Origin: Nanobdellota archaeon
Lineage (GTDB): Archaea > Nanobdellota > Nanobdellia > Woesearchaeales > GCA-2686295
DNA length: 21,144 nt
Reading direction: 5' to 3'
NCBI GenBank assembly: GCA_018819065.1
Contig: JAHJQL010000051.1
Location: 1-21,144 of the forward strand
The position numbers and the translations under genes are program-made. Positions within the stretch are counted from its first letter, which is position 1, and each line of letters opens with the position of its first letter. Shown one piece after another: positions 3,217-16,551 of the stretch. The notes beneath the pieces are model-generated. The model searched no databases, was not told the DNA's origin, and worked only from the letters and a program-made list of their open reading frames with translations.

Positions 3217-4500
3217 ATGCATATGAGGTACATTTCAGACCTTCATATTCATTCTAAGTACAGCCGGGCTTGTTCAACAGAGTTAACAATACCAAACCTT
3301 GAGAAGTGGGCAAAGATAAAGGGAGTGGATGTTTTAGGCACGGGAGACTTTACTCATCCAAAGTGGATTGAAGAGCTTAAGAGCAACTTAAAGGATGATG
3401 GTTCTGGAATAATGAGAACTCAGAATGGTTTTCCATTCGTTCTCCAGACAGAGATATCTTTAATTTATAGTCAGGCAAATAAGGGTCGAAGAGTTCATCA
3501 CATAGTATTAGCGCCCAGTTTTGAAGTAGTTGACCAGATAACTGAGTATTTGAAGAAACACGGACGAGTAGATTATGATGGAAGGCCAATATTTAAGATT
3601 TCATCAGATAACTTATTATACGAATTAAGAAGGATTTCCCAAGATGTAGAAGTAATCCCCGCGCATATATGGACTCCTTGGTTTAGCCTATTTGGATCTA
3701 ATTCTGGCTTTGACTCAGTCCACGAATGTTTCAAAGACCAGGAGAAATATGTTCATGCATTAGAGACTGGTCTTTCAAGCGATCCAGCAATGAACTGGCA
3801 GCTAAGCCAGCTAGACAAATTTAACCTCGTATCATTTTCAGACGCTCACAGCTTTTGGCCCTGGAGAATTGGGCGAGAAGCAACTATTTTTGAATTGAAA
3901 GAATTATCATACGCAAATATTATAAGAGTGATTAGGTCAGGTGAAGGTCTTCTTGGAACTGTGGAAGTTGACCCCTCTTATGGAAAATACCACTTTGACG
4001 GTCACAGAAACTGCAACATCGTCATGAGTCCTGAGCAATCAGTCAGCGTCAATAATGTTTGCCCAAAATGTAATTCTAACATGACCTTAGGCGTTGCTCA
4101 CAGAATCAGAGAGCTTGCTGACAGACCACAAAACTACAAGCCTGAAAACGCGAAAACTTTTTACACGATGCTGCCATTATCAGAGATACTTGCAAAGATT
4201 TTCAATAAAACTATATCATCTAAGATTGTGTGGCGAGAGTATAACAAGGTTCTTAGAAGGTTTGGCTCAGAATATGAAATACTGCTAAACGCATCTAAAA
4301 GCCAGCTTAGAGAAGTAACTTATGAACAAGTCGCAGAAGCAATAATTAAGAACCGCTCAGGACTCCTAAAAGTAATTCCTGGATATGACGGAGTCTACGG
4401 AGAGCTTGTGATGGAGCCAATAACTAATAAGGAATTAGAAGAAGATGAAAAAGAAAAATTGGATGAGTCAAAACAGCAAGGACTCTCAGACTTTTTTTAG
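3217..4500 (+). CDS. endoQ: Endonuclease Q (PHP-domain DNA repair endonuclease with C-terminal zinc finger)
   Basis: DLHIHSKYSRA start motif, GTGDFTHPKW, VHHIVLAP, PAHIWTPWFSLFG, SDAHSFWPWRIGRE, GKYHFDGHRNC, CPKC...GVAHRIRELADR, PGYDGVYGEL. I placed the start at the ATG at 3217 (alternative 3223) rather than the track start at 3118, which overlaps the divergent hpt gene. Confidence 0.8.
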   Translation: MHMRYISDLHIHSKYSRACSTELTIPNLEKWAKIKGVDVLGTGDFTHPKWIEELKSNLKDDGSGIMRTQNGFPFVLQTEISLIYSQANKGRRVHHIVLAPSFEVVDQITEYLKKHGRVDYDGRPIFKISSDNLLYELRRISQDVEVIPAHIWTPWFSLFGSNSGFDSVHECFKDQEKYVHALETGLSSDPAMNWQLSQLDKFNLVSFSDAHSFWPWRIGREATIFELKELSYANIIRVIRSGEGLLGTVEVDPSYGKYHFDGHRNCNIVMSPEQSVSVNNVCPKCNSNMTLGVAHRIRELADRPQNYKPENAKTFYTMLPLSEILAKIFNKTISSKIVWREYNKVLRRFGSEYEILLNASKSQLREVTYEQVAEAIIKNRSGLLKVIPGYDGVYGELVMEPITNKELEEDEKEKLDESKQQGLSDFF

Positions 4501-4508
4501 ATTATTCT

Positions 4509-5210
4509 TCATCCAAGATAACTCATATATTTCTTGTCACTCTCCTCACTAACCTTTGAGGTTTGCTGTATTAATCCTTTGAGTTTTTGTTCAAACTCCT
4601 CTGCTTGTTTAAACAGCGGCTTATAATCAACCTTTAATCCCAGGTACTTGTCAAGCACCTCTATTACTTTTGCGGCTGACTTGCTGTCTGGAAGGGCGGA
4701 ATGTGTTTCAGCAAATATGCAAGTGATGTTGCTGTACTTTATCATTAGGCTTGAAGTAACACCTATTATTATACTTTCATTTATCGGTTCTAAACCAAAT
4801 TTTTTCAGGTTGTCATCTCCGTAATAAAATAGTTTTGAGTCATTCTTTAATCCGGGAGGCGAGTTGACCCCTTCAATGCATAGAATCTTCTTTGCTTTCA
4901 ACTGCTTAGCCAAGTCAATTATAGCATCTGCAATATCCCACTCTTTACCTTTAGGGTTTAGTATGGTTTGGAGTATTACAACATTGTGTTTCTTTGAGTA
5001 ATACACAGCCATGGGTTTTACAAGCTTACCCTTATGAATAGCAACGATCGCCGGCAAGTCATTATAAATAAATTCTCCTATAAGCTCACAGTTCATGTGT
5101 TCAAGCAAGAATTCTGTCGTTATCGTTCCTATAAGTCCAAATCCAGGGAAACCTTGAATTATTATAGGATTTTGCGGTTTCTTCTTTAGTTCAATCTTCA
5201 AAAAAACCAC
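4509..5210 (-). CDS. PAC2-family protein (archaeal proteasome assembly chaperone-like, COG1938)
   Basis: 233 aa. The N-terminal PIIIQGFPGFGLIGTI motif is typical of PAC2. GTG start at 5210; an alternative TTG at 5201 lies behind an aaggtgg SD-like sequence. Confidence 0.75.
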   Translation of the reverse strand: MVFLKIELKKKPQNPIIIQGFPGFGLIGTITTEFLLEHMNCELIGEFIYNDLPAIVAIHKGKLVKPMAVYYSKKHNVVILQTILNPKGKEWDIADAIIDLAKQLKAKKILCIEGVNSPPGLKNDSKLFYYGDDNLKKFGLEPINESIIIGVTSSLMIKYSNITCIFAETHSALPDSKSAAKVIEVLDKYLGLKVDYKPLFKQAEEFEQKLKGLIQQTSKVSEESDKKYMSYLG

Positions 5211-5310
5211 CTTGTTTTTTTGATACGACAGAAATTTTTGGAATTTCTGAAGTACAGAAACTTTTTGTTTCTGTTAGCCCAAAAAACTCTGTTTTTTGTT
5301 GTTTCATCAT
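5191..5310 (-). CDS. Possible 39-aa micro-ORF (MMKQQKTEFFGLTETKSFCTSEIPKISVVSKKQGGFFED)
   Basis: ATG-ATG preceded by gaggtg on the minus strand. It overlaps the PAC2 start by 20 nt in another frame. It has no homology support and contains two hairpins. Confidence 0.2.
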   Translation of the reverse strand: MMKQQKTEFFGLTETKSFCTSEIPKISVVSKKQGGFFED

Positions 5311-5410
5311 AACACCTCTATTCTTTCATTGGAATAATGTTTTATAAATTTTGTGTTAAAAAATAATTTTCAAGCAACATTTATAAAATAGAACAGTATT
5401 TATTATTAAC

Positions 5411-6370
5411 ATGGGTTTTGATTCAATACCAAGGATTGAGACGGCTGATTTCTATCTAGATGTAGCTTTCAGAGCCGGCAGAAACGCAGCCTCCCTAAAA
5501 AAAACAACTTTGAAAATTGACAAGTTCAAGAAGATAAAAACTTTAGAGATAGAAAAGATAGATGTAGTCAACAAGAATCTGAACAAGAAATTATCAGACA
5601 TAACATACTCTTTTCCTAACTTTGAAAACTTAACAGAGTTTTACGAAGAACTCGTGAGAACCTTGATTGATTACACAGCTCTTAAGAAGTCACTGGGATC
5701 AGTCAACTGGGCTAAGAACAAGATAGCTGATTTTTCAAGAGAATACGTTTTTAAGATAAAGAAATGTCAAGACTCTCTGGTTATAAAGAAGTACAGCAAG
5801 GAGTACAACGGACGAATATCATCTGTTATGAAGCAGATATCAAAAAACCTCTTATTTTTAGACGAGTCAAGAAGAGTGATGAAGGATTTTCCTTCAATAA
5901 AAGATGGCTTGTTCACAATTGCAATAGCTGGTTTTCCAAATGTTGGCAAATCAACAGTCCTAAGCAAGCTGACAACTTCAAAGCCAGACATCCAAGCCTA
6001 TGCATTCACCACAAAAACCCTCAACGTCGGATACATGGCTAGTGGTCATAACAAGATACAATTCATAGACACGCCCGGAACTCTAAATCGACTTGATAAG
6101 ATGAATGCAATTGAAAAAATAGCTTACTTAGCGATAAAATACTGTTCAGAATTAATAATATTCATCTATGACTTAACAGAAACGTACTCTTTAGAAGACC
6201 AAAACAAGCTTTTGAAAAGGATGAAAGAATTTGACAAACCCATACTAATTTATCTAAGCAAGGCCGACTTGCTTGAAGAGATGACTATCAATGATTTTTG
6301 CAAGAAAAACAAAGATGCAATAATAAGTATTGATGTGTTGAAAGAAAAAATATTGAATATTTCTATCTAA
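5411..6370 (+). CDS. Nog1-type GTP-binding protein (COG1084)
   Basis: 319 aa. G1 GFPNVGKST, G3 DTPG, G4-like SKAD, preceded by an N-terminal helical domain of about 170 aa, as in archaeal NOG1-family GTPases. Confidence 0.8.
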   Translation: MGFDSIPRIETADFYLDVAFRAGRNAASLKKTTLKIDKFKKIKTLEIEKIDVVNKNLNKKLSDITYSFPNFENLTEFYEELVRTLIDYTALKKSLGSVNWAKNKIADFSREYVFKIKKCQDSLVIKKYSKEYNGRISSVMKQISKNLLFLDESRRVMKDFPSIKDGLFTIAIAGFPNVGKSTVLSKLTTSKPDIQAYAFTTKTLNVGYMASGHNKIQFIDTPGTLNRLDKMNAIEKIAYLAIKYCSELIIFIYDLTETYSLEDQNKLLKRMKEFDKPILIYLSKADLLEEMTINDFCKKNKDAIISIDVLKEKILNISI

Positions 6371-6946: not shown

Positions 6947-7019
6947 AGCCCCGTAGTGTAGCGGCCAATCATCACAGGTTCTGGCCCTGTGGACCACGGT
7001 TCGAATCCGTGCGGGGCTA
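6947..7019 (+). tRNA. tRNA-Gln (anticodon CUG), no encoded CCA, no intron
   Basis: Hand-folded cloverleaf. Acceptor agccccg/cggggct (7 bp). Anticodon stem acagg/cctgt with loop ttCTGgc. T arm cacgg-ttcgaat-ccgtg. D-loop agcggccaa. Discriminator A. A1:U72 as in archaeal tRNA-Gln. Confidence 0.9.
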
Positions 7020-7078
7020 CATTATATTTTAGTGATTTGAGGGGATAATTTTTCTTGTATTATAAAGAAATTGGGCAG
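7006..7078 (+). repeat. 73-bp direct repeat, left copy (tRNA positions 60-73 plus 59 nt downstream); attL-like
   Basis: Identical base for base to 12191-12263 (offset 5185 nt), checked by eye. Confidence 0.9.
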
Positions 7079-7147
7079 AGCCATTATCTCTTTTGTTACA
7101 TTTGCGGACAACAATCTATTTTCACGTCTATAATTCGTTGGTTCGTC

Positions 7148-7160
7148 TCCGGGTGGCATA
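7148..7160 (+). repeat. Degenerate tRNA-3'-end-like core (tccgggtggcata), preceded by a T-loop-like ggttcgtc
   Basis: Lies inside the 89-nt segment present after the left 73-bp repeat but absent after the right one. The match is weak. Confidence 0.3.
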
Positions 7161-7167
7161 AAATCGA

Positions 7168-7180
7168 AACATTTATATAT
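7168..7180 (+). promoter_or_regulatory. TATA-type promoter element aacatttatatat of the VapBC module
   Basis: The identical 13-mer also occurs at 12275-12287. It sits 46 nt before the vapB ATG here and 43 nt before the AbrB-type antitoxin ATG there. Confidence 0.5.
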
Positions 7181-7225
7181 TTACACGTATTCAACGTATT
7201 ATACATAATACACGTAGGTAATACT

Positions 7226-7447
7226 ATGGTTAGTATAACTTTATCTGTGCCTAAAGAGTTGAAGAGTGAAATGGATTTGCATCCTGAGATGAATTGGTCA
7301 GAGATAGCACGACAAGCAATCAGAAGCAAAATAAGCATTCTAAAAAGGATGGATGCATTAGTAGCTAATAGTAAACTTACTGAGAAAGATGCTTTAGAAA
7401 TCGGTAGAAAAGTAAACAGATCTTTAGCGAAAAGATTTGGTGCATAA
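7226..7447 (+). CDS. vapB: Ribbon-helix-helix (CopG/VapB-type) antitoxin
   Basis: 73 aa. The start MVSITLSVPKELKSEMD....NWSEIARQAIR is a typical archaeal RHH antitoxin N-terminus. The stop abuts the PIN gene ATG (taaATG). The track ORF start at 7055 is an artefact of the repeat. Confidence 0.75.
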   Translation: MVSITLSVPKELKSEMDLHPEMNWSEIARQAIRSKISILKRMDALVANSKLTEKDALEIGRKVNRSLAKRFGA

Positions 7448-7858
7448 ATGGATGTAGTTGTAGATGCAAACATTCTAATGTCTGCACTGATTAAAGATAG
7501 TCATACAAGAAAACTCTTAGTTCTAAGCAACAACAATTTCTATACTCCAGAATATGTTTTCGATGAAATTAACAATCATATCGATGAGTTAGAGGAAAAA
7601 TCAGGGATGCCAAAAGAACTTATAAAAGAAGTAATCAGTGAAATAATACATCTAGCAAACGTGCACATAATACCAATAACAGAACTAGAAAAACATTATG
7701 ATAAAGCAAAAAGAATTACCCCAGATAAAGACGACACATACTACTTCGCACTAGCACTAAAGAACAACTGTCCAATATGGTCAAACGATAAAAAATTAAA
7801 AACACAAAACAAGATCACAATATACAATACAACAGAAATAACAGAAAAACACACATAA
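7448..7858 (+). CDS. vapC: PIN-domain ribonuclease toxin (VapC-type)
   Basis: 136 aa. N-terminal VVVDANILMSALI (first acidic residue). Downstream DDTYYFALA and PIWSNDKKL (the last conserved Asp) fit the PIN_3-like layout. Confidence 0.8.
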   Translation: MDVVVDANILMSALIKDSHTRKLLVLSNNNFYTPEYVFDEINNHIDELEEKSGMPKELIKEVISEIIHLANVHIIPITELEKHYDKAKRITPDKDDTYYFALALKNNCPIWSNDKKLKTQNKITIYNTTEITEKHT

Positions 7859-7898
7859 ATATATTTAGGACACATGAATGTCATCAAGACGTATTAAA

Positions 7899-7913
7899 TC
7901 TGGGCGGGGGCTA
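7899..7913 (+). repeat. tRNA-3'-end-like core copy (tctgggcgggggcta)
   Basis: Lies 40 nt after the vapC stop, in the same orientation as the tRNA. Differs from tccgtgcggggcta by 2 substitutions and 1 extra g. Confidence 0.7.
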
Positions 7914-7930
7914 TCCGTATCAATATGACA

Positions 7931-7941
7931 TCCGTGGGCTA
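7931..7941 (+). repeat. Truncated core copy (tccgtgggcta)
   Basis: Matches the tRNA core with an internal 3-nt deletion, 17 nt after the previous copy. Confidence 0.45.
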
Positions 7942-8033
7942 TCGGAATGGCTCACGAATATTATTTCTCTCTCAAAAACTTAGAAATGTGACATTTTAAT
8001 AATTCTACAAAACATACCAAAGTATAGAAGTTT

Positions 8034-8044
8034 GGACAGGGCTA
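8034..8044 (+). repeat. Short core-like motif (ggacagggcta) next to the stop of the Lrp-like gene
   Basis: Positional counterpart of ggggagggcta at 10410-10420. Both close a homologous non-coding spacer of about 120-130 nt. Confidence 0.4.
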
Positions 8045-8049
8045 TCATT

Positions 8050-9000
8050 TTAGAAATATACTAGTTTTATGTATTCTCTGAATGTTATTTCTTCGTAATC
8101 CGTGATTTTGGTGATGTTTTTTATTTCATTCATTATCCTGTTTATCTCTTCTCTTGTGGAAACTTCTATATCTATTTCAAAGTCGTTTTGGGATATTGTG
8201 AAATCAATATATGTTATGAAAGGATTGTATTTGGCAAATTCTATTAATTCTCTTATTTTGATAGTCTCGCTTAGTACGATATTTATTTTATAATATTTGT
8301 ATCCTATTTTCTCCAGGTTAAGTAATGGTTTGTATCCTACTATTATGTCGTTTTTCTCTAGTTGTTTTATTCTATATGCTATAGTCTTGGCTGGCATGTT
8401 TAATTTTTTGGAAATTTCTAGAACTGATACTCTGGCATTATTAGACATTATCTTTAATATTTTGATGTCGCGTTCATCGAATTGTACTTCTGGTGATCCT
8501 CCCACTATCAGTGATTTTGGTGGTTCTGAATTTTTTTGGTTTTGTACTAAGTAGTTTCTGTCAAAATGTATGACTTTTGTGAATATCGCTATTTGTACCC
8601 TGCCCATATTTTTCTTGAATTTTTCTTTAAAATTATTCCAGAATTCATAAAATTCATAGATGGTTTTTACCCAGCACATTATTGCTAAATCATAGTTTCC
8701 TTCGAGTCTTGATAATACATGTACTTCTGTAAGTGCTATAAGATAATTATGAATTTCAGTGTCAATTTCTTGGTCTGAATTTGCCAATCGCAAATATATC
8801 CTGAAACCAAAATATCCTAATTTGGAATTATCTATTATGGTATAATATCCTTTTATGTATCCTGTATCTTCTAATTTCTTTAATCTATATTGTGCAGTAT
8901 TTTGGTTTATTCTTAATTTTTTGGCAAGATGAGATACTGGTATTCTTCCATTTTTATCTAATTCGAGAAGCATCTTTTTATCAGTCAAATCAAGATTCAT
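8050..9000 (-). CDS. Tandem-repeat Lrp/AsnC-family transcriptional regulator
   Basis: 316 aa with two wHTH units (DKKMLLELDKNGRIPVSHLAKKLRINQNTAQYRLKKLEDTGYIKGY and RDIKILKIMSNNARVSVLEISKKLNMPAKTIAYRIKQLEKNDIIVGY). Each unit is followed by an RAM-like beta-alpha segment. Confidence 0.75.
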   Translation of the reverse strand: MNLDLTDKKMLLELDKNGRIPVSHLAKKLRINQNTAQYRLKKLEDTGYIKGYYTIIDNSKLGYFGFRIYLRLANSDQEIDTEIHNYLIALTEVHVLSRLEGNYDLAIMCWVKTIYEFYEFWNNFKEKFKKNMGRVQIAIFTKVIHFDRNYLVQNQKNSEPPKSLIVGGSPEVQFDERDIKILKIMSNNARVSVLEISKKLNMPAKTIAYRIKQLEKNDIIVGYKPLLNLEKIGYKYYKINIVLSETIKIRELIEFAKYNPFITYIDFTISQNDFEIDIEVSTREEINRIMNEIKNITKITDYEEITFREYIKLVYF

Positions 9001-9144
9001 ATTGTTATAAAGATTATCTTATTTATAAAGGTTATGCTAATATAACAAATATTATGTAGAAAAGTTAATATAGTTTGTGTACGTTACTCTTTATTAGTAA
9101 TAAAACATATCATCGTTGTATGATGTTTTACTGGAGATGAAAAA

Positions 9145-9915
9145 ATGGTTTCTGCGGAATACACAGAGTTTGAAGATGTACAGAAAAAAAATAATTATAC
9201 TGATATCCAACTTGAAAAAATAGTCCTTCAACTACGAGAAGTTGTTGATGGTGACATAAGAAACTATAATGAAGGAACAAGAAGATTGATAGTTATGAGA
9301 AATTACGATGAAATAAAGTCTAAGGAAGAGTATCTTTCTAAACATGCTATATTAAAATGGATGTTTTTAGAGAAAAAGATGCAGTCTAAACACAAAGAAA
9401 TATATTCTTTTAATCAACATAGTTCTAACTATTCTGAGTTAGTGGATATAATCTGGAAAATATACGATGTGACAAAACAGAACGTAGTATCTGGAGAGAG
9501 CATATTAGATCTTAGAAAGAACTTTGAAGAAGTATATGAATCAAAACGGAATAATTTGGCGCTGGATCATGTAAGTAATTATTTGTTTCAATATCCGGAA
9601 TATGCCAAGGCAGAATTCGAAGCTCTAACTAAAAAAATAAGAAGCGAAGATGGCTCCTACGGAATATATATTGGGAAATTTTATGATTATGGAAAGTATT
9701 ATCCTGCATTGACAGAACAACTAATGAAAGAATTAGGCTCAATGTATAATAGGACATCAGAATCGGATAGAAAACGTATCTTGTCTGCAGCTACACTTGG
9801 TTTTGTGGCTAATTTTGATTCCATATGTGAATTTCGCGTTGAGCAATTAGGCGATAATTTTAACTGGACAAAAGATAAATCTTGTGCATACGCAGGTATA
9901 ATTTGTGAGGATTGA
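9145..9915 (+). CDS. Hypothetical protein (orphan, 256 aa)
   Basis: ATG with ggaga 7 nt upstream, divergent from the Lrp-like gene. No motif I recognise. Confidence 0.6.
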   Translation: MVSAEYTEFEDVQKKNNYTDIQLEKIVLQLREVVDGDIRNYNEGTRRLIVMRNYDEIKSKEEYLSKHAILKWMFLEKKMQSKHKEIYSFNQHSSNYSELVDIIWKIYDVTKQNVVSGESILDLRKNFEEVYESKRNNLALDHVSNYLFQYPEYAKAEFEALTKKIRSEDGSYGIYIGKFYDYGKYYPALTEQLMKELGSMYNRTSESDRKRILSAATLGFVANFDSICEFRVEQLGDNFNWTKDKSCAYAGIICED

Positions 9916-9919
9916 CTAA

Positions 9920-10195
9920 ATGAAGCGTCAAGTTGTTCATAACATTCATGAGGATTACTCATTATGGAAGAAGTTGATTGAGTTAGATTATTATCTTTTA
10001 GGTTTGGCTGATGATGTTTTTGTTTCTCCTGTTAAGTATTATTTTAGTTCGCATGGTTTTGGAATAATCCTGTCAAGAAATGTGTTGATAGTTTCAGGAA
10101 GTACAAAGGATAAAGTCAGAAACGAAGTCCAGAGATTAGATAAGAAGATTCGACTCAATCAAAAGAAGCTACTTCAATGCGTAAGCATGCACTAA
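9920..10195 (+). CDS. Hypothetical protein (orphan, 91 aa)
   Basis: ATG 4 nt after the upstream stop, with gagg 9 nt upstream, so it looks operonic with 9145-9915. Confidence 0.5.
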   Translation: MKRQVVHNIHEDYSLWKKLIELDYYLLGLADDVFVSPVKYYFSSHGFGIILSRNVLIVSGSTKDKVRNEVQRLDKKIRLNQKKLLQCVSMH

Positions 10196-10265
10196 TATTC
10201 GTAGCTCTGGCTAGATTTCTATAATTTGTATGATATTCTCCGAGCTAAATTTATATATGATGACG

Positions 10266-10279
10266 TCCGGGCGGGGCTA
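10266..10279 (+). repeat. tRNA-3'-end-like core copy (tccgggcggggcta, 13/14)
   Basis: Lies 70 nt after the stop of the 91-aa ORF, in direct orientation. Contains the exact 11-mer gggcggggcta. Confidence 0.8.
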
Positions 10280-10409
10280 ATAGTACTAATGTGGTTTTTG
10301 CGGACACTATTTATGCCCGTAAAAAGCCAGTTTTTCTCTCTAAGAAATAATTTCTAGAAATTTGTATTACAGATGTAATACTTCGAAATACATCAAAAGT
10401 AATGAGTTC

Positions 10410-10420
10410 GGGGAGGGCTA
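10410..10420 (+). repeat. Short core-like motif (ggggagggcta) overlapping the stop codon of the TrmB-like gene
   Basis: Counterpart of 8034-8044. The cta is the reverse complement of the TAG stop. Confidence 0.4.
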
Positions 10421-11131
10421 GTATTTTGCTGTTTTCCAGATTAATTTAAAGTAGTTTCTATATGATTTAGCAACTTCTTTGTTTTGTATAACTGTTGCTA
10501 TAGGAATTTCACTCCAAACAATTATTGCAATATTATTTTCGTAAACAAATGTTGTTGTAGGAGAGATAAATTCTTCAGGAAGATATTTAAACGTGGAATA
10601 CGCGTATTTTACGCTTTCGGATTTTTTTGCATTTTCTGAAAATATCACGTGTGCAATTATCTTTTTATCCTTCTTGGATTTTTGAAATAATAAATAATCG
10701 TGTTTCATTATATCCAAGAATTTTCCTGAAGAACCATAACATACATATTCTTTAGTTTTTAAAATATCGCAGAGTATGGATTTGATGCCTTTTTTACCTT
10801 CATATATACTTGATGTTTCGGTTTCTTTACTCGACTTGAATCGCATTTCTAGTTCAGGTAATATCTCTTTTGCAATAGTTTCTTGATCTCTTATTATCTC
10901 TAGTAATTTTGTCGGAGAAACTGCTTTGAATACTTTTCTATTGGATTGAAGAACATATGTTACAAGTCCTTTATCTAATAATCTATTGATTGAATCGTAA
11001 ACTGTTGTTCTATTAATTTTAGATTTTTTACTTATTTTTCCTGCATTAGATGCTCCTATATCTAAAAGAGTTACATATACCAATGCTTCGGTTTTATTCA
11101 ATCCTAATTTTTCCAATTTTTCTATACTCAT
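10418..11131 (-). CDS. TrmB-family transcriptional regulator
   Basis: MSIEKLEKLGLNKTEALVYVTLLDIGASNAGKISKKSKINRTTVYDSINRLLDKGLV is the canonical TrmB N-terminal wHTH. I prefer the ATG at 11131 over the GTG at 11140. Confidence 0.8.
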   Translation of the reverse strand: MSIEKLEKLGLNKTEALVYVTLLDIGASNAGKISKKSKINRTTVYDSINRLLDKGLVTYVLQSNRKVFKAVSPTKLLEIIRDQETIAKEILPELEMRFKSSKETETSSIYEGKKGIKSILCDILKTKEYVCYGSSGKFLDIMKHDYLLFQKSKKDKKIIAHVIFSENAKKSESVKYAYSTFKYLPEEFISPTTTFVYENNIAIIVWSEIPIATVIQNKEVAKSYRNYFKLIWKTAKY

Positions 11132-11253
11132 AATACCCACTAATAATGTGTCTTTTTTAAATCTATTGGATTGTTGTTAGTTTACTCACAACATAAATTA
11201 ATATAGTGGAAGAGTATTCACTTATTGAGAGTAATTATTCGGGGAGATTTAAA

Positions 11254-11925
11254 ATGTATCATATTAGAAAAGAAGCAGATCTTAAAAACAATAGAAGGGT
11301 TTTATACGTCGAAGCTCCTTTTGATAAAGCTCTTAAGATAATCAAATTGAGAGGGAGTAATATTATTACTGCGAAACAACTCGCCGATGCGCGTATGCAA
11401 TGCGATGTAAGTCATTCTTTATCAGCAAATGGCGCATATATCTCAGAAGGAATTATAGTTGATCCGTATCCAAAACACCCTAACATACTTCTAAGAGAAT
11501 CTTTAATTTTGAATAATCCACATAATGCCACAGAGTCGCATCGAAAAATTAGGAATTATAATTATTATCATGAGTCTTACGTTGTTCCTTCTACTATTGA
11601 AAGTGTATTAAATGGTTTGATCGAGGATAAAGACTATATTTTTCTTGACGATAGAATCGGAGACCATGTTATTTCCTATACTGAATTTTTTGAACACAGT
11701 AAATTAATGAATTTTTTGTTTGGTAAATCTGCTAAAGCGTACGGGATTTGGTTAAAAGAAGAAGGAAAAATCTCAAAAGTCAATATTTATAATATTACAT
11801 GTGCAAGAAGATCAGAAATAACTGCGGATCAGCTTTGGTTTAATAGACTAACAGAGAATAGTTTCTTTGGAGGAGGAAGATATCTTAATCATAGTAATAG
11901 AGTTCGTTGGATAGATACAAAATAG
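11254..11925 (+). CDS. Hypothetical protein, member of the island paralog family (C-terminal LWFNRL...GGGRYLNHSNRVRWI)
   Basis: The ATG at 11254 is preceded by ggggag 7 nt upstream (the track ORF starts at GTG 11206). Distantly collinear with 13043-13858. Confidence 0.6.
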   Translation: MYHIRKEADLKNNRRVLYVEAPFDKALKIIKLRGSNIITAKQLADARMQCDVSHSLSANGAYISEGIIVDPYPKHPNILLRESLILNNPHNATESHRKIRNYNYYHESYVVPSTIESVLNGLIEDKDYIFLDDRIGDHVISYTEFFEHSKLMNFLFGKSAKAYGIWLKEEGKISKVNIYNITCARRSEITADQLWFNRLTENSFFGGGRYLNHSNRVRWIDTK

Positions 11926-12033
11926 AAAAATCGAAGAAGATATATTGTAATATTTTAGCTTTGTCTCGATTTCAATCATAACTGTATTACAAACTCCAAG
12001 ATAATTATATTAGCAATGATAGTAAAGGATTGT

Positions 12034-12171
12034 ATGGATGAATTTGAGGCTATAATGCAAGAAAAAGAACGACTATTAAGAAAATACCACTGCAAGACAA
12101 TAAATGAAGTAATACGAATTCTACAGCTAATTCTAGCCGAAAACAATAAAAAAGCCGAAAGTCCTATGTAA
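12034..12171 (+). CDS. Possible 45-aa small protein (MDEFEAIMQEKERLLRKYHCKTINEVIRILQLILAENNKKAESPM)
   Basis: Not in the ORF track because it is short; an alternative ATG lies at 12016. Its 3' end is conserved with a decayed copy at 14320-14361. The stop is exactly 19 nt before the core repeat in both places. Confidence 0.35.
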   Translation: MDEFEAIMQEKERLLRKYHCKTINEVIRILQLILAENNKKAESPM

Positions 12172-12190
12172 GTCATATCTCCTATAGATG

Positions 12191-12263
12191 TCCGTGCGGG
12201 GCTACATTATATTTTAGTGATTTGAGGGGATAATTTTTCTTGTATTATAAAGAAATTGGGCAG
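12191..12263 (+). repeat. 73-bp direct repeat, right copy; attR-like
   Basis: Identical to 7006-7078. Upstream of it there is no T-arm or other remaining tRNA sequence. Confidence 0.9.
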
Positions 12264-12274
12264 GCTAAAACCAT

Positions 12275-12287
12275 AACATTTATATAT
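12275..12287 (+). promoter_or_regulatory. TATA-type promoter element aacatttatatat of the AbrB-RelE module
   Basis: Identical 13-mer to 7168-7180. Confidence 0.5.
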
Positions 12288-12329
12288 ACGACGTGTTTTA
12301 ATATTAAAATATATTGTAGGTGGTGCTTT

Positions 12330-12605
12330 ATGGAAGTCTCTATAACTAAAATGTCTGAAAATGGTCAAGTCGTAATACCTGCTGAAGTAAGGAAAGATGC
12401 AGGGATAGGTCCATCAACAAAATTCATCGTATTTAATCATGATGGAAACATTATGTTAAAACAGATGAAAAAAGAATCTTTAGTGAAGGATATGGAATTA
12501 ATAGATAAGATTAATCGTAGTGAAACTCAAATAAGTAGTGGCAAAGTGGTTAAAGCAAATACCAAGATGAAAAATGAAGAAATAGATGACCTTCTAATGG
12601 GATAA
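12330..12605 (+). CDS. AbrB/SpoVT (MazE-like) domain antitoxin
   Basis: 91 aa. ITKMSENGQVVIPAEVRKDAGI is a swapped-hairpin AbrB motif. aggtggtg lies upstream of the ATG. The stop is 1 nt before the toxin ATG. Confidence 0.75.
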   Translation: MEVSITKMSENGQVVIPAEVRKDAGIGPSTKFIVFNHDGNIMLKQMKKESLVKDMELIDKINRSETQISSGKVVKANTKMKNEEIDDLLMG

Positions 12606-12606
12606 A

Positions 12607-12852
12607 ATGGAAATTATTTTTTCTGAAGAATTCAAGAATGAGTTCAAGAAGATAAAGGATAAAACTACAAGAATAAAAATTATCAAACATATAAAAAAAT
12701 TAGAACAATTGCCAGAATCAGGAAAACCGTTAAAACATAATCTAAAGAATCATAGAACCACAAGAATTCCTCCATTCAGATTAATATATAGAATTGAAGG
12801 AGATAAAATAATAATAAACTGTTTTGACCACAGAAAGGATGTATACGAATAA
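12607..12852 (+). CDS. RelE/ParE-superfamily toxin
   Basis: 81 aa. The ...GKPLKHNLKNHRTTRIPPFRLIYRIEGDKIIINCFDHRKDVYE tail is typical of RelE/StbE-type toxins (R..YRI.....I.I....HR.D.Y). Confidence 0.75.
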   Translation: MEIIFSEEFKNEFKKIKDKTTRIKIIKHIKKLEQLPESGKPLKHNLKNHRTTRIPPFRLIYRIEGDKIIINCFDHRKDVYE

Positions 12853-12867
12853 TTGTCAAGGATGGTA

Positions 12868-12881
12868 TCCGGGCGGGGCTA
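12868..12881 (+). repeat. tRNA-3'-end-like core copy (tccgggcggggcta, 13/14)
   Basis: Lies 15 nt after the relE-like stop and is identical to the copy at 10266-10279. Confidence 0.8.
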
Positions 12882-13042
12882 TTATGCGTGTTCTAGATTA
12901 TCGTATGAGTGTATTTGTTCGTATAGGCTCATGTGTTTCTTGTTTTGGTGTGTGTTTTTATATTCATAACGAAAAACAAATGTTTTGTTACTAAATAGTG
13001 GTTAAATAATCGTAAAATTTATAAATAGAACACTCTTTATGC

Positions 13043-13858
13043 ATGAAAAAAGAGTTAAAACTCACCATAACGGAGGAAAATAAAATTAGCTTACAATTAA
13101 ACAATCCAGTTGCTGTTTACAAGGAATTTTATGGCAAGAACATAGATAAGATGCCTGAGCTTATAGCTTCAGGTTTTACGCCAATGACTTTTGCTGACGT
13201 GATGAAGCGCAGACTAGAAGTCTTAGGAGGCAACAAAGATGTGGCAGATGCGTGGTGGGATAATTATTTTGACACTGTCAATATTGTTGCTTATCATCCT
13301 GATGGCAGGATAAAAATAGTTCTTGACTCACAATTAGCCAAGGAAATTAATCCAAAAAGTACTGTAAGAAATGGTTCAATTGTTCTTCCAAACACTGACG
13401 CATATGAACAACTTGCAGGACAAGAATTTACACAAAAGGAAATTGAAAAGTATGCCAAATCAGAATCATTAACGCTTAAACAAGCACTAAGCAATCCAAT
13501 ATGGGCTGCATTAGCAAATGATCCAAAACTTCATGAAGAATATGCAAAAGCAACATTCAAAGAAGCCAAAGAAAAATACGGGTTCAATAATAATCTAGGC
13601 GTTTATTTGTCAGGATTCAAAGAAGTTCCTAATTTTAGGCTTTGGTTGTCGAGCAGGCTCAACTACAACTCGGATGCTGATGGTAGCAATTCTCTTGACT
13701 ACAACTATGGGCGTCTGGTCGGGGTAGCGCCGGAGGCGCACGGCGCCGAAAAAATAGCTATGCCGACACTAGAGCAGATTATGAATATCAGTTCAAAATA
13801 TGTTGCTCCAGTTAATGTTGATGCATTAAGAAAAGACCTAAAAGGCATCTACAAATAA
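13043..13858 (+). CDS. Hypothetical protein, member of the island paralog family (C-terminal RLWLSSRLNYN...NYGRLVGV)
   Basis: 271 aa. tttataaata lies about 20 nt upstream, so the transcript is probably leaderless. Paralogous to 11254-11925 and to the relic at 13944-14149. Confidence 0.65.
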   Translation: MKKELKLTITEENKISLQLNNPVAVYKEFYGKNIDKMPELIASGFTPMTFADVMKRRLEVLGGNKDVADAWWDNYFDTVNIVAYHPDGRIKIVLDSQLAKEINPKSTVRNGSIVLPNTDAYEQLAGQEFTQKEIEKYAKSESLTLKQALSNPIWAALANDPKLHEEYAKATFKEAKEKYGFNNNLGVYLSGFKEVPNFRLWLSSRLNYNSDADGSNSLDYNYGRLVGVAPEAHGAEKIAMPTLEQIMNISSKYVAPVNVDALRKDLKGIYK

Positions 13859-13907
13859 TTCTTTTTTTCAATAATTTTTTATATTAACTATTCTTTACTT
13901 ATTATTG

Positions 13908-13917
13908 TCCCGGCTTA
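13908..13917 (+). repeat. Possible badly eroded core (tcccggctta)
   Basis: Lies 50 nt after the stop of 13043-13858, where a block boundary would be expected. The match is weak. Confidence 0.2.
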
Positions 13918-13943
13918 GTGCATTACTGCAAAAAGTGCACATC

Positions 13944-14149
13944 AGATAGCTGAGATCTACACGCCATTTCACTATGGCAAGCATTTGCAGTGCCTGCTAT
14001 AAAATACAACCACGACAGAAATGAAGTGGTGGTGAAAACTATTAGGTGAAATGGCTACTCGAGGGGATTTGGTTGCTTGGCAGGCTCAACAACAACTTCA
14101 ATGCCAATGGCAACAACAACGTTGACAACAACAATGGGCGTCTTGTCGG
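13944..14149 (+). pseudogene. Decayed, internally deleted paralog of 13043-13858
   Basis: Nucleotide collinearity with the intact gene: atagct-N9-acgcca, and gtggtgg(t)gaaaactatt versus gtggtgggataattatt. The segment tttggttg..ggcaggctcaac.acaact..aatgc..atgg...atgggcgtct.gtcgg also aligns. The relic has in-frame TAA and TGA stops, a +1 frameshift and about 340 nt missing. Track ORF 14046-14255 is its 3' remnant. Confidence 0.6.
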
Positions 14150-14380
14150 AATAGATCTGCTATTTACCGGGACACTTAAAATCTTAGTAGAGCCAAATCT
14201 TTATGTCGGAAGGGATATGGCTTCCATGCAAGATTTTGGCTCCAATATTGGCTAAAAACGCAAGATTCTGCACTTCCTGGCTCCATTCTGGGTCTACTCG
14301 ACGAGAGCCACGACTAAAGAATAATTTAGAAAACCGCAAAAACGCCGACAGTCCCACATGACTCAGTTTTCGGGTTGACC

Positions 14381-14394
14381 GCTGGGCGGGGCTA
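14381..14394 (+). repeat. Distal tRNA-3'-end-like core copy (gctgggcggggcta, 11/14)
   Basis: Last copy in the window. It contains the exact 11-mer gggcggggcta, and I take it as the outer island boundary. Confidence 0.7.
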
Positions 14395-15555: not shown

Positions 15556-16551
15556 TTATTCTAATCTTTTTACTGCCTGCGCGTATATTTCTGCTCCGTA
15601 CTTTGCTTCTTGTATTGTGAAATACGTGTTTCCGATGTCATAGGAGCCTGCTTCTTTTGTTTTCCGCAATCTTGTTATTATGGTTTCTATTGCCATGTTT
15701 TCTTTTATTAGGACATTTACTGCTTTGTCTACATCCTCGTCTGTCGTCGTTTTAGTTTTCAGCAGTGCCTTGTTTCTCTTAACGCCTAGTTTGTGGCAGG
15801 TCCATTCATATGTTTTTTTGAGTTCGTATAATCCTCTGTTTAGAGCGTTATATCTGTAAGATGGGTTGTCTTCTTTTTCGCTCCACACTTTGGAGATATG
15901 TCTTTCAACACCCCTGCTTATTCCTTCTGAGAACGACTCATATGATGTTCCATATGTGTTTACAGTTGCTTGCAGTATTCCTTTCTTGCTTAGTATGTGA
16001 TGAGTGTATTCGTGTGCTGAGATGACTATGTTGTTTGTTTTGTTTGCGTCTTTTTTTGATAGGTCGATTGTTTCTTCCAATGGTGAATATGTGCTTATGT
16101 TGTACTCTTCTTTGTGATACTCTATTATTCCTTTTGCTATCATCGTTCCTGCTATTGTTCCAAATATAGCTATAGGGTTAAAGTTTGTGATGGCGTAATA
16201 TGCTGCAGGTGTTAATATTGATGCTAATGCTGCATAAACTCCTGCGTATTTGAGGTTTGTTTTTCTGAATTGAAATATGTTGTAATAGCCTATCTCTGGT
16301 GATTCTATGTTTTGTACTTGTAAGAATTCATCTACTTCTTTTTTTATATCGACAAAAGTTTTTTGAAGCTCTTTGTTTTTTAGTTTTTTTCCAAAGTTCA
16401 GCTTTCCTTCTTCGTTGAGTCTTTTTAGTTTTTTGTATTCTTCAATCTCTTTGTTTAGTATCTCTTCGAGTATTGGGATGTTTTCCTTTTTTAGGACTTC
16501 TGATTTTAGCTTGCAGTCTTCAATTTGTTCGAGTGTTTCTTGATTTATCAT
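15556..16551 (-). CDS. Membrane-associated MA-clan (gluzincin-like) HExxH metallopeptidase-domain protein
   Basis: HEYTHH followed 24 residues later by SFSEGIS (HExxH...E, Peptidase_MA-like). N-terminal coiled coil plus hydrophobic segments (YAGVYAALASILTPAAYYAI, IAIFGTIAGTMIAKGII). I prefer the ATG at 16551 because a tttatatat TATA sits at about 16594-16602 on the minus strand (the track start is TTG 16593). Confidence 0.6.
   Translation of the reverse strand: MINQETLEQIEDCKLKSEVLKKENIPILEEILNKEIEEYKKLKRLNEEGKLNFGKKLKNKELQKTFVDIKKEVDEFLQVQNIESPEIGYYNIFQFRKTNLKYAGVYAALASILTPAAYYAITNFNPIAIFGTIAGTMIAKGIIEYHKEEYNISTYSPLEETIDLSKKDANKTNNIVISAHEYTHHILSKKGILQATVNTYGTSYESFSEGISRGVERHISKVWSEKEDNPSYRYNALNRGLYELKKTYEWTCHKLGVKRNKALLKTKTTTDEDVDKAVNVLIKENMAIETIITRLRKTKEAGSYDIGNTYFTIQEAKYGAEIYAQAVKRLE

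Follow-up and report, generated by a model that had tools for sequence, protein, structure and literature searches.

Small Gene Blocks Probably Inserted in Succession at the 3′ End of tRNA-Gln in a Woesearchaeota-Type Archaeon

Introduction

Cis-mobilizable elements (CIMEs) are units flanked by attachment (att) sites; they have lost their integration genes, have kept these sites and were built up by accretion in streptococcal elements (PMC5704250). The tycheposon islands of Prochlorococcus consist of tandem elements that are parted only by partial tRNA genes, newer elements pushing the older ones inward; tycheposons themselves are defined by a specific lineage of tyrosine or large serine recombinases and by a replication module (bioRxiv 10.1101/2020.12.28.424599). 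The locus described here belongs to a Nanobdellota archaeon and lies on contig JAHJQL010000051.1 (assembly GCA_018819065.1), of which positions 1 to 21,144 were analysed, hereafter the window. Between 7.0 and 14.4 kb, at least five small gene blocks are inserted successively at the end of a tRNA-Gln gene. The locus is best explained as a tRNA-anchored genomic island of small size, carried by the chromosome of a Woesearchaeota-type archaeon of the DPANN group.

The layout is known from bacteria and looks undescribed in this archaeal group: no description of DPANN elements integrated in this way at tRNA genes was found in the open-access literature. An initial annotation of the window, made from the sequence alone, had known of no such tRNA-based arrangement; this claim of novelty is too broad, tycheposon islands and streptococcal CIMEs having already been described. 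What is new is the host (DPANN Woesearchaeota), the very small size of the units, the consistent absence of integrases, the recurrent use of tRNA-Gln and a cargo that includes parts of diversity-generating retroelements (DGRs). The genomes of DPANN archaea are tiny and very few of their mobile elements have been characterised; the tRNA-Gln hotspot is a concrete place to study how these genomes gain and lose genes.

Copies of the tRNA-Gln 3′ End in the Window

The anchor and attachment site is a tRNA-Gln(CTG) gene (6947-7019/7020, + strand; ARAGORN; Rfam tRNA, 52.8 bits). The repeated core corresponds to its final 14 nt (7006-7019, tRNA positions 60-73). When one mismatch at most is allowed, the 11-mer GGGCGGGGCTA occurs five times, at 7009, 10269, 12194, 12871 and 14384, always on the + strand; 0.01 occurrence is expected by chance (shuffled sequence) and none of 100 shuffles reached five. 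A search for the 14-mer with up to three mismatches returned the same copies and one unrelated minus-strand match at 6066. The core motif was not found in the remaining 13.7 kb of the window. The recurrence of the tRNA-Gln 3′ end in a single orientation, first seen in the initial annotation, is therefore not due to chance.

Beyond the tRNA gene, the strong cores are an exact one (12191-12204, + strand), two copies of the G variant TCCGGGCGGGGCTA (10266-10279 and 12868-12881, both + strand; pattern search) and the distal core GCTGGGCGGGGCTA (14381-14394, + strand). Strong cores follow the last plus-strand gene of each block, at 41, 71, 20, 16 and 20 nt from its stop codon (16-71 nt, practically the range of 15-70 nt given at first). 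At least five decayed copies are found besides the strong ones, all on the + strand and within 7.0-14.4 kb, and the weaker copies that had been noticed near 7148, 7899, 7931, 8034 and 10410 are among the sequences recovered. The first, GGTTCGTCTCCGGGTGGCA (7140-7158), is a decayed but longer partial tRNA copy (T-loop plus 3′ end, read from the sequence) and sits directly 5′ of the promoter region of vapBC. TCTGGGCGGGGGCTA (7899-7913; sequence comparison) has one extra G, and the adjoining TCCGTGGGCTA (7931-7941) has lost CGG. TTTGGACAGGGCTA (8031-8044) and TTCGGGGAGGGCTA (10407-10420) are weak cores that end two spacers; AATTGGGCAGGCTA (12254-12267) is a degenerate core that comes after the exact one of 12191-12204. 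A further decayed core-like sequence is found at 7069-7082.

The copy at 12191 is exact, as first reported, but it is not just a core: it starts the second copy (12191-12263, + strand) of a perfect direct repeat of 73 nt. The first copy (7006-7078, + strand; repeat search, 100% identity) comprises the 14-nt core and 59 nt of the adjacent sequence, and ends in the core-like motif GGGCAG. The repeat brackets 5185 bp and was confirmed in five other contigs. Both toxin-antitoxin units of the window share the same 59-nt arm, and each begins directly after a decayed core-like sequence. A metagenome scan with this arm gave no match.

Two other segments are homologous to each other (local alignment, z = 5.4), the spacers 7942-8044 and 10280-10420 (both + strand). 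Each extends over ~100-140 nt between a strong core and a weak one, TTYGGRSAGGGCTA, and stops just before a minus-strand gene encoding a winged-helix regulator; these shared features indicate that blocks 2 and 3 have one architecture. The spacers may be tiny decayed units or a conserved end of an element. The cores at 12191 and 14381 also have homologous left flanks, which encode the C-terminus of a micro-ORF (open reading frame), ENNKKAESPM and ENRKNADSPT, respectively.

Four of the copies carry the same T-to-G difference from the resident tRNA, and this difference matches the tRNA-Gln of other lineages: TCCGGGCGGGGCTA is the genuine 3′ end of tRNA-Gln elsewhere in Woesearchaeota, including locus L017 (L-numbers, such as L017, L117 or L160, are labels of the related contigs or loci compared with the window). 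L017 is among the closest relatives according to ribosomal protein L10e (73% identity; best match, 76%). Since the G variants match tRNA-Gln 3′ ends of other lineages, the left part of the distal copies is best read as having been imported with the insert, a pattern that crossing over inside the shared GCGGGGCTA would yield.

tRNA-Gln Site in Related Genomes

Seven occurrences of G[GT]GCGGGGCTA were counted in 1.07 Mb of Woesearchaeota DNA (80 loci); each is either a tRNA-Gln 3′ end or a partial copy located a few hundred bases downstream of such a gene. Downstream of ~18 other tRNA genes of these loci, no same-strand copy of the tRNA 3′ end was found. The motif is confined to tRNA-Gln 3′ ends and their immediate downstream region, and hence is not a generic repeat; the proposal that the copies mark recombination junctions is supported by this distribution.

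A metagenome scan with the 28-nt 3′ half of the tRNA-Gln of the window recovered 42 tRNA-Gln loci, 8 of which carry same-strand downstream copies (exact in 3). The blocks so delimited are small: 1.05 kb with a HEPN-MNT toxin-antitoxin pair in L128 (= L045); 4.4 kb with a regulator and an ABC transporter in L131; 1.3 kb with an ATP-grasp gene in L138, L145 and L154 (block A); 0.46 kb with one ORF of 82 aa in L126 (= L039); 0.4 kb with one ORF of 96 aa in L129. The repeats have 15-16 nt in L128, L131 and L138, versus 14 nt in the window.

The locus L160 is an empty site: the flank encoding ferredoxin and S3Ae directly follows the tRNA gene, whereas in L138 the same flank follows the distal core. 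Across the clade that shares an upstream kinase gene, the distance between the tRNA gene and the flank is 85, 1297, 1413, 1991 or 2173 nt. The breakpoints between filled (L138, L154, L131) and empty (L160) alleles lie exactly at the core. Presence/absence polymorphism at the level of blocks, the first check suggested in the initial annotation, is thus found in relatives, and its breakpoints fall on the core. The block A copies of L138 and L154 are 97% identical, against only 80-86% for their flanks; the excess of similarity in the block indicates horizontal spread. A left arm of ~33 nt, TARYCCCAAAAAKTNNCCMTARAANNTAYMTAA, is conserved before the distal core in L129, L131, L138/L145 and L154, whose cargos are unrelated and whose downstream flanks differ. 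Several relatives keep the L10e gene next to tRNA-Gln, as the window does.

These data bear on explanations that involve no insertion at all, namely a generic repeat (terminator or repetitive extragenic palindrome-like), a tRNA end that was duplicated locally or copied by gene conversion, or an artefact of assembly. Strong cores always follow the end of a plus-strand gene, as terminators do, and the 73-nt repeat could come from a segmental duplication. Such explanations are nevertheless largely refuted and are considered most improbable: the motif is absent from the rest of the window and, except at tRNA-Gln, from the 1.07 Mb of relatives; the core forms no hairpin; filled and empty alleles break exactly at the core; and the same arrangement is found, 100% identical, in contigs of three metagenome-assembled genomes deposited at NCBI (GCA_018822225.1, GCA_018819945.1 and GCA_018828865.1) and in several Logan contigs. 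The latter break within the 73-nt repeat, as expected at k = 31. Every same-species contig retrieved through exact-protein look-ups (L10e, RelE and the dCTP-deaminase (DCD)-like neighbour) is 100% identical to the window, gene order included; all are clonal, so that they have no power to reveal polymorphism in the lineage of the window itself.

Another explanation is that the copies are target-site duplications of 14-16 nt made by a tRNA-targeting transposase or casposase, the blocks being remnants of casposon-like or other transposons. The near-fixed length of the repeats would suit it. Casposons target tRNA 3′ ends, make duplications of ~14-15 bp and can insert in tandem. The array ORFs gave no match to Cas1, to family B DNA polymerase (PolB) or to a transposase, and none of the inverted repeats that were found is a terminal one placed at the ends of a block; a casposon was rejected on these grounds. 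Furthermore, a local duplication cannot yield the T-to-G difference that four copies share with other lineages, and one repeat is 73 nt long. Duplication of the target site is therefore regarded as very improbable.

Some minor features of tRNA-Gln loci were recorded. Many tRNA-Gln genes of Woesearchaeota contain an intron (L039/L126, L128/L045, L147, L017, L031, L082), and ARAGORN missed or mislabelled them. In L139, tRNA-Gln TTG and CTG are each followed by a similar segment of ~80 nt (oriented coordinates -3183 and +80); each segment terminates in a partial tRNA copy of greater length (T-arm plus acceptor end), before which lies an inverted T-arm-like sequence. In L064 (oriented coordinates 15672-16496), a tRNA-Gln(TTG) gene is in tandem with an intron-bearing tRNA-Gln(CTG) gene, and, with no gene between, the 3′ end of the first gene recurs 87 nt downstream as an exact copy of 14 nt. 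The arm of L154 looks like a mixture of those of L138 and L131, a hint that a crossover took place within the arm.

Search for a Recombinase and for Circular Forms

Neither the ORFs of 40 aa or more in 7.0-14.4 kb nor the larger flanking genes matched a recombinase or transposase family, in agreement with the initial annotation. Integrases, and recognisable fragments of them, are likewise absent from all of the ~15 blocks examined in the window and in more than 10 other genomes. The search combined Pfam profiles run on 96 ORFs located downstream of tRNA-Gln with a jackhmmer search seeded with the L122 integrase and run against every ORF fetched; matches were confined to L121/L122. An SSV-type split integrase was rejected, no integrase-like ORF abutting any core. 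The absence of integrases from ~15 blocks raises a testable question: which enzyme carries out the recombination?

Proposed Tandem Accretion at tRNA-Gln

Repeated site-specific recombination at the 3′ end of tRNA-Gln, with tandem stacking of units that cannot move by themselves, is held to be somewhat probable. An incoming circular DNA would carry a copy of the tRNA-Gln 3′ end that would act as its attP site. A crossover inside the shared GCGGGGCTA would rebuild the tRNA gene and, at the same time, place a partial copy of it at the distal end of the insert. Repetition of such events, or the insertion of ready-made composites, would stack the units head to tail. As to the 73-nt repeat, the 5.2-kb segment, which contains cores and is itself composite, is proposed to have recombined into the junction that an earlier, related unit with the same arm had left behind. 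To move again, the units would depend on a recombinase whose gene lies elsewhere or on homologous recombination between the repeats. The repeats with their restriction to tRNA-Gln, the filled and empty alleles of relatives, the absence of recombinase genes and the DGR anatomy are observed; the circular intermediates, the type of the recombinase and the succession of events are inferred.

The locus has the features expected of tandem accretion and of CIMEs: direct repeats of the 3′ end of the target, all in one orientation, with an intact tRNA gene; and, in relatives, presence/absence polymorphism that breaks at the repeats.

Several results weigh against this scheme. The cores do not form a simple series in which the newest is the nearest to the tRNA gene: the copy at 12191, exact and of T type, has G-type copies on either side, and at least one composite insertion must therefore be assumed. 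No recombinase gene was found downstream of ~50 tRNA-Gln loci; as the window and the blocks are also devoid of one, the enzyme is hypothetical. The integrase of L121/L122 is linked neither to a tRNA gene nor to a core. Scans of viral contigs with attP-like patterns revealed no circular form and no attP-bearing plasmid or virus: they returned chance-like matches in high-GC coding sequences, viruses or unrelated contigs that have a whole tRNA, or nothing. No relative with an empty site was found for the lineage of the window, synteny on the far side being lost in the closest genomes available.

Integrase-Less Cassettes as an Alternative

The blocks could instead belong to a dedicated system of cassettes that were born small and without integrase, each made of an arm and a tRNA-Gln core, and that a recombinase acting in trans inserts and excises at tRNA-Gln. 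The gene for this enzyme would lie at another place of the genome or on a helper element, and the system would operate in the manner of integron cassettes or Xer-dependent dif modules, with a tRNA gene as its site. Action of a recombinase in trans is possible. The lack of integrases in ~15 blocks, including those of L128 (1.05 kb) and L131 (4.4 kb) that are flanked by exact repeats, argues for such cassettes, as do the ~33-nt left arm conserved across the unrelated cargos of L129, L131, L138 and L154, the 97% identity of an integrase-less block of 1.3 kb between flanks of 80-86%, and the position of the two toxin-antitoxin units of the window right after a core-like sequence with the same 59-nt arm.

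Other data fit it poorly. Neither a candidate recombinase nor a circular junction was found, and blocks 3 and 5 are clearly products of deletion. The AbrB-RelE family of block 4 is also found at unrelated, non-tRNA chromosomal sites (L170-L174), with a conserved promoter region and without cores. The 58 nt ending at each of 11 cores were folded on both strands, and arm plus core showed no excess of secondary structure (z-scores from -2.4 to +1.6, mostly near 0). The arms differ according to the lineage: a motif search across all arms detected no significant motif common to every copy, similarity being found within groups only. Moreover, co-transfer with a helper element that was later excised precisely, i.e. 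cis-mobilisation (PMC5704250), explains the same data. A dedicated cassette system is thus conceivable but rather doubtful.

The initial annotation had preferred a cassette platform to fossil att scars left by serial integrations whose integrases were lost. The preference is not supported, blocks 3 and 5 showing the decay that such scars imply; the platform itself is kept alive by the ~15 integrase-less blocks, the exact repeats around tiny blocks, the conserved arm and the near-identical copies of block A. A Woesearchaeota family of integrase-less cassettes specific to the tRNA-Gln site, shuttled between genomes by a recombinase acting in trans, can be put forward tentatively. If it exists, the principle of cassette arrays would have been invented independently on the basis of a tRNA; the family would be a functional analogue of the integron and dif-module systems and would spread toxin-antitoxin pairs, regulators, transporters and DGR parts.

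Comparison with Known Systems

CIMEs and the streptococcal islands of the ICESt1/ICESt3 type resemble the locus in layout: their direct att repeats comprise the target gene's 3′ end, they are stacked in tandem and their integration genes are gone. Those elements are bacterial and derive from conjugative elements with known integrases. The present units belong to a DPANN archaeon and, with 0.1-4.4 kb, are much smaller; no parent that has an integrase and targets tRNA-Gln was seen. Like tycheposon islands, the locus is anchored on a tRNA gene of a streamlined genome and contains degenerate remnants and scattered partial tRNAs. Unlike them, it has neither the defining recombinase nor the replication module, and fragmented integrases are found in tycheposon islands, whereas none is found here; assignment to tycheposons was rejected because these hallmark genes are absent.

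The initial annotation had asked whether the array is integron-like. Ordered small units, a recurring site, toxin-antitoxin modules and the absence of a recombinase inside the cassettes are indeed shared with chromosomal integron arrays. An integron was nevertheless rejected, since adjacent intI, attC hairpins and co-oriented promoterless cassettes were all looked for and none was found: there is no intI, attI or Pc promoter beside the array, the neighbour being the L10e gene; the sites are tRNA 3′ ends, and no attC-like hairpin was revealed by the structure search around the cores; and the genes lie on both strands, apparently with promoters of their own.

Xer-dependent elements (integrative mobile elements exploiting Xer, IMEXs, and the pdif modules of Acinetobacter) include small integrase-less modules, often toxin-antitoxin ones, that are moved by the host recombinase; such modules are bounded by dif-like sites, which are 11-6-11 palindromes. 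Here, in contrast, the core corresponds to a strand of the acceptor and T stems of the tRNA, and no dif-like palindrome was seen by eye.

DGR Remains in Blocks 3 and 5

Two calls of the initial annotation in block 5, an "orphan" and a "decayed relic", have to be replaced. The orphan (13043-13858, + strand, 271 aa) matches AvpA, the variable protein of a DGR of Nanoarchaeota (PDB 5IOO, E = 1.7e-5; PMC5006420); its C-terminal variable region (VR) extends over 13638-13727 and is followed by a GC hairpin (13727-13739). The relic is not a dead gene but an AAC-rich template repeat (TR; 14065-14154, + strand), 74% identical to 13638-13727, preceded by a full-length RT-16 RNA (13907-14063, + strand; Rfam RF03019, 76.6 bits versus a gathering score of 50). 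The possible core copy reported at 13908 is the 5′ end of this RNA. RT-16 RNA is also found directly 5′ of the template repeats of L117 and L121 (Rfam).

L117, another contig of the same genome, encodes a paralogous variable protein beside a reverse transcriptase (RT) of 551 aa. The template repeat of the window differs from the variable region of L117 at 12 positions, 8 of which are template adenines, and that of L117 differs from the variable region of the window at 15 positions, 11 of which are template adenines. Pairing is thus crosswise, the template of each locus fitting the variable region of the other one best, and non-adenine positions agree. The locus shares with Nanoarchaeota/DPANN DGRs an AvpA-type variable protein, variable and template repeats that differ mainly at adenines, and an RT-16 RNA before the template. 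It departs from the other ones in that the window DGR locus (13043-14154) has no reverse transcriptase of its own: the only one found is that of the L117 locus (3311-6195), in trans, and the templates are crosswise. A locus made of target and template can therefore be distant from the sole reverse transcriptase gene detected in its genome.

Block 3 contains a 223-aa protein (11254-11925, + strand) whose homologues are the VR-bearing DGR targets of L121; this family is tiny (4 database matches). L121 (1516-4554) contains a complete DGR with two targets of the family (VRs at 2076-2156 and 2902-2982), a template repeat (3309-3389) and then a reverse transcriptase. In L121/L122, this complete DGR stands beside a XerA-like tyrosine recombinase gene, with no tRNA gene or core nearby. 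Block 3 has neither template repeat nor reverse transcriptase. It ends with the 51-aa micro-ORF m51 (12016-12171, + strand), and the end of block 5 carries a relic of the same terminal module (14317-14361, + strand; C-terminus ENRKNADSPT, homologous to m51). In these two blocks m51 lies ~20 nt before the core; a homologue of m51 and a degenerate core directly follow the reverse transcriptase gene in L117 (3115-3195, minus strand). No family match was obtained for m51. The DGR pieces and the terminal m51/core module being kept and the reverse transcriptase missing, these two blocks at least appear as remains of DGR-bearing elements: comparison of the sequences identifies them demonstrably as derivatives of larger elements by internal deletion, with loss of the reverse transcriptase and, in block 3, of the template repeat. 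Parts of DGRs (variable-protein genes, RT-16/TR RNA) thus travel and decay as pieces of such units.

Gene Content and Chromosomal Setting

The cargo of the array amounts to two toxin-antitoxin pairs, two units made of a winged-helix regulator and its cargo, and one DGR satellite locus. The VapBC, Lrp-like, TrmB-like and AbrB-RelE calls of the initial annotation were upheld by Pfam. Gene orientation is mixed, the Lrp-like and TrmB-like genes being on the minus strand. Block 1 encodes VapB (7226-7447, + strand; RHH_12, precomputed) and VapC, which has a PIN domain (7448-7858, + strand; Pfam PIN_2, E = 3.6e-26). Block 2 encodes an Lrp/AsnC-like regulator of 316 aa with a double helix-turn-helix (HTH) (8050-9000, minus strand; Pfam HTH_24 and HTH_AsnC) and two orphans of 256 aa (9145-9915, + strand) and 91 aa (9920-10195, + strand) without family match. 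In block 3, the gene for the 223-aa protein is preceded by that of a TrmB-like regulator (10418-11140, minus strand; Pfam TrmB). Searches of the orphan proteins against PHROGs, PADLOC and NCBIfam gave no match beyond HTH, and viral contigs contain no relatives of the 223-aa and 256-aa proteins.

The array lies in an ordinary archaeal chromosome (G+C content of the window, ~33%). It is flanked on the left by genes encoding PAC2, NOG1 and L10e, the latter being the immediate neighbour, and on the right by a dCTP-deaminase-like gene and a Na+/H+ exchanger gene. Among species-representative genomes, the closest match of the L10e of the window (76% identity) is found in Woesearchaeota/Nanoarchaeota genomes.

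Block 4 encodes AbrB/MazE (12330-12605, + strand; Pfam) and RelE/ParE (12607-12852, + strand; Pfam). Its cargo, i.e. the AbrB-RelE unit and its promoter, is a conserved stretch (12268-12852, + strand; blastn homology over 12267-12853 in L170-L174), and the family comprises more than 537 protein clusters in DPANN genomes (73-94% identity). Both toxin-antitoxin modules of the window are of type II and of known families (RHH_12 with PIN_2; MazE/AbrB with ParE/RelE). TATA-like TTTATATA boxes were read from the sequence upstream of vapB, abrB and the gene for the 271-aa protein.

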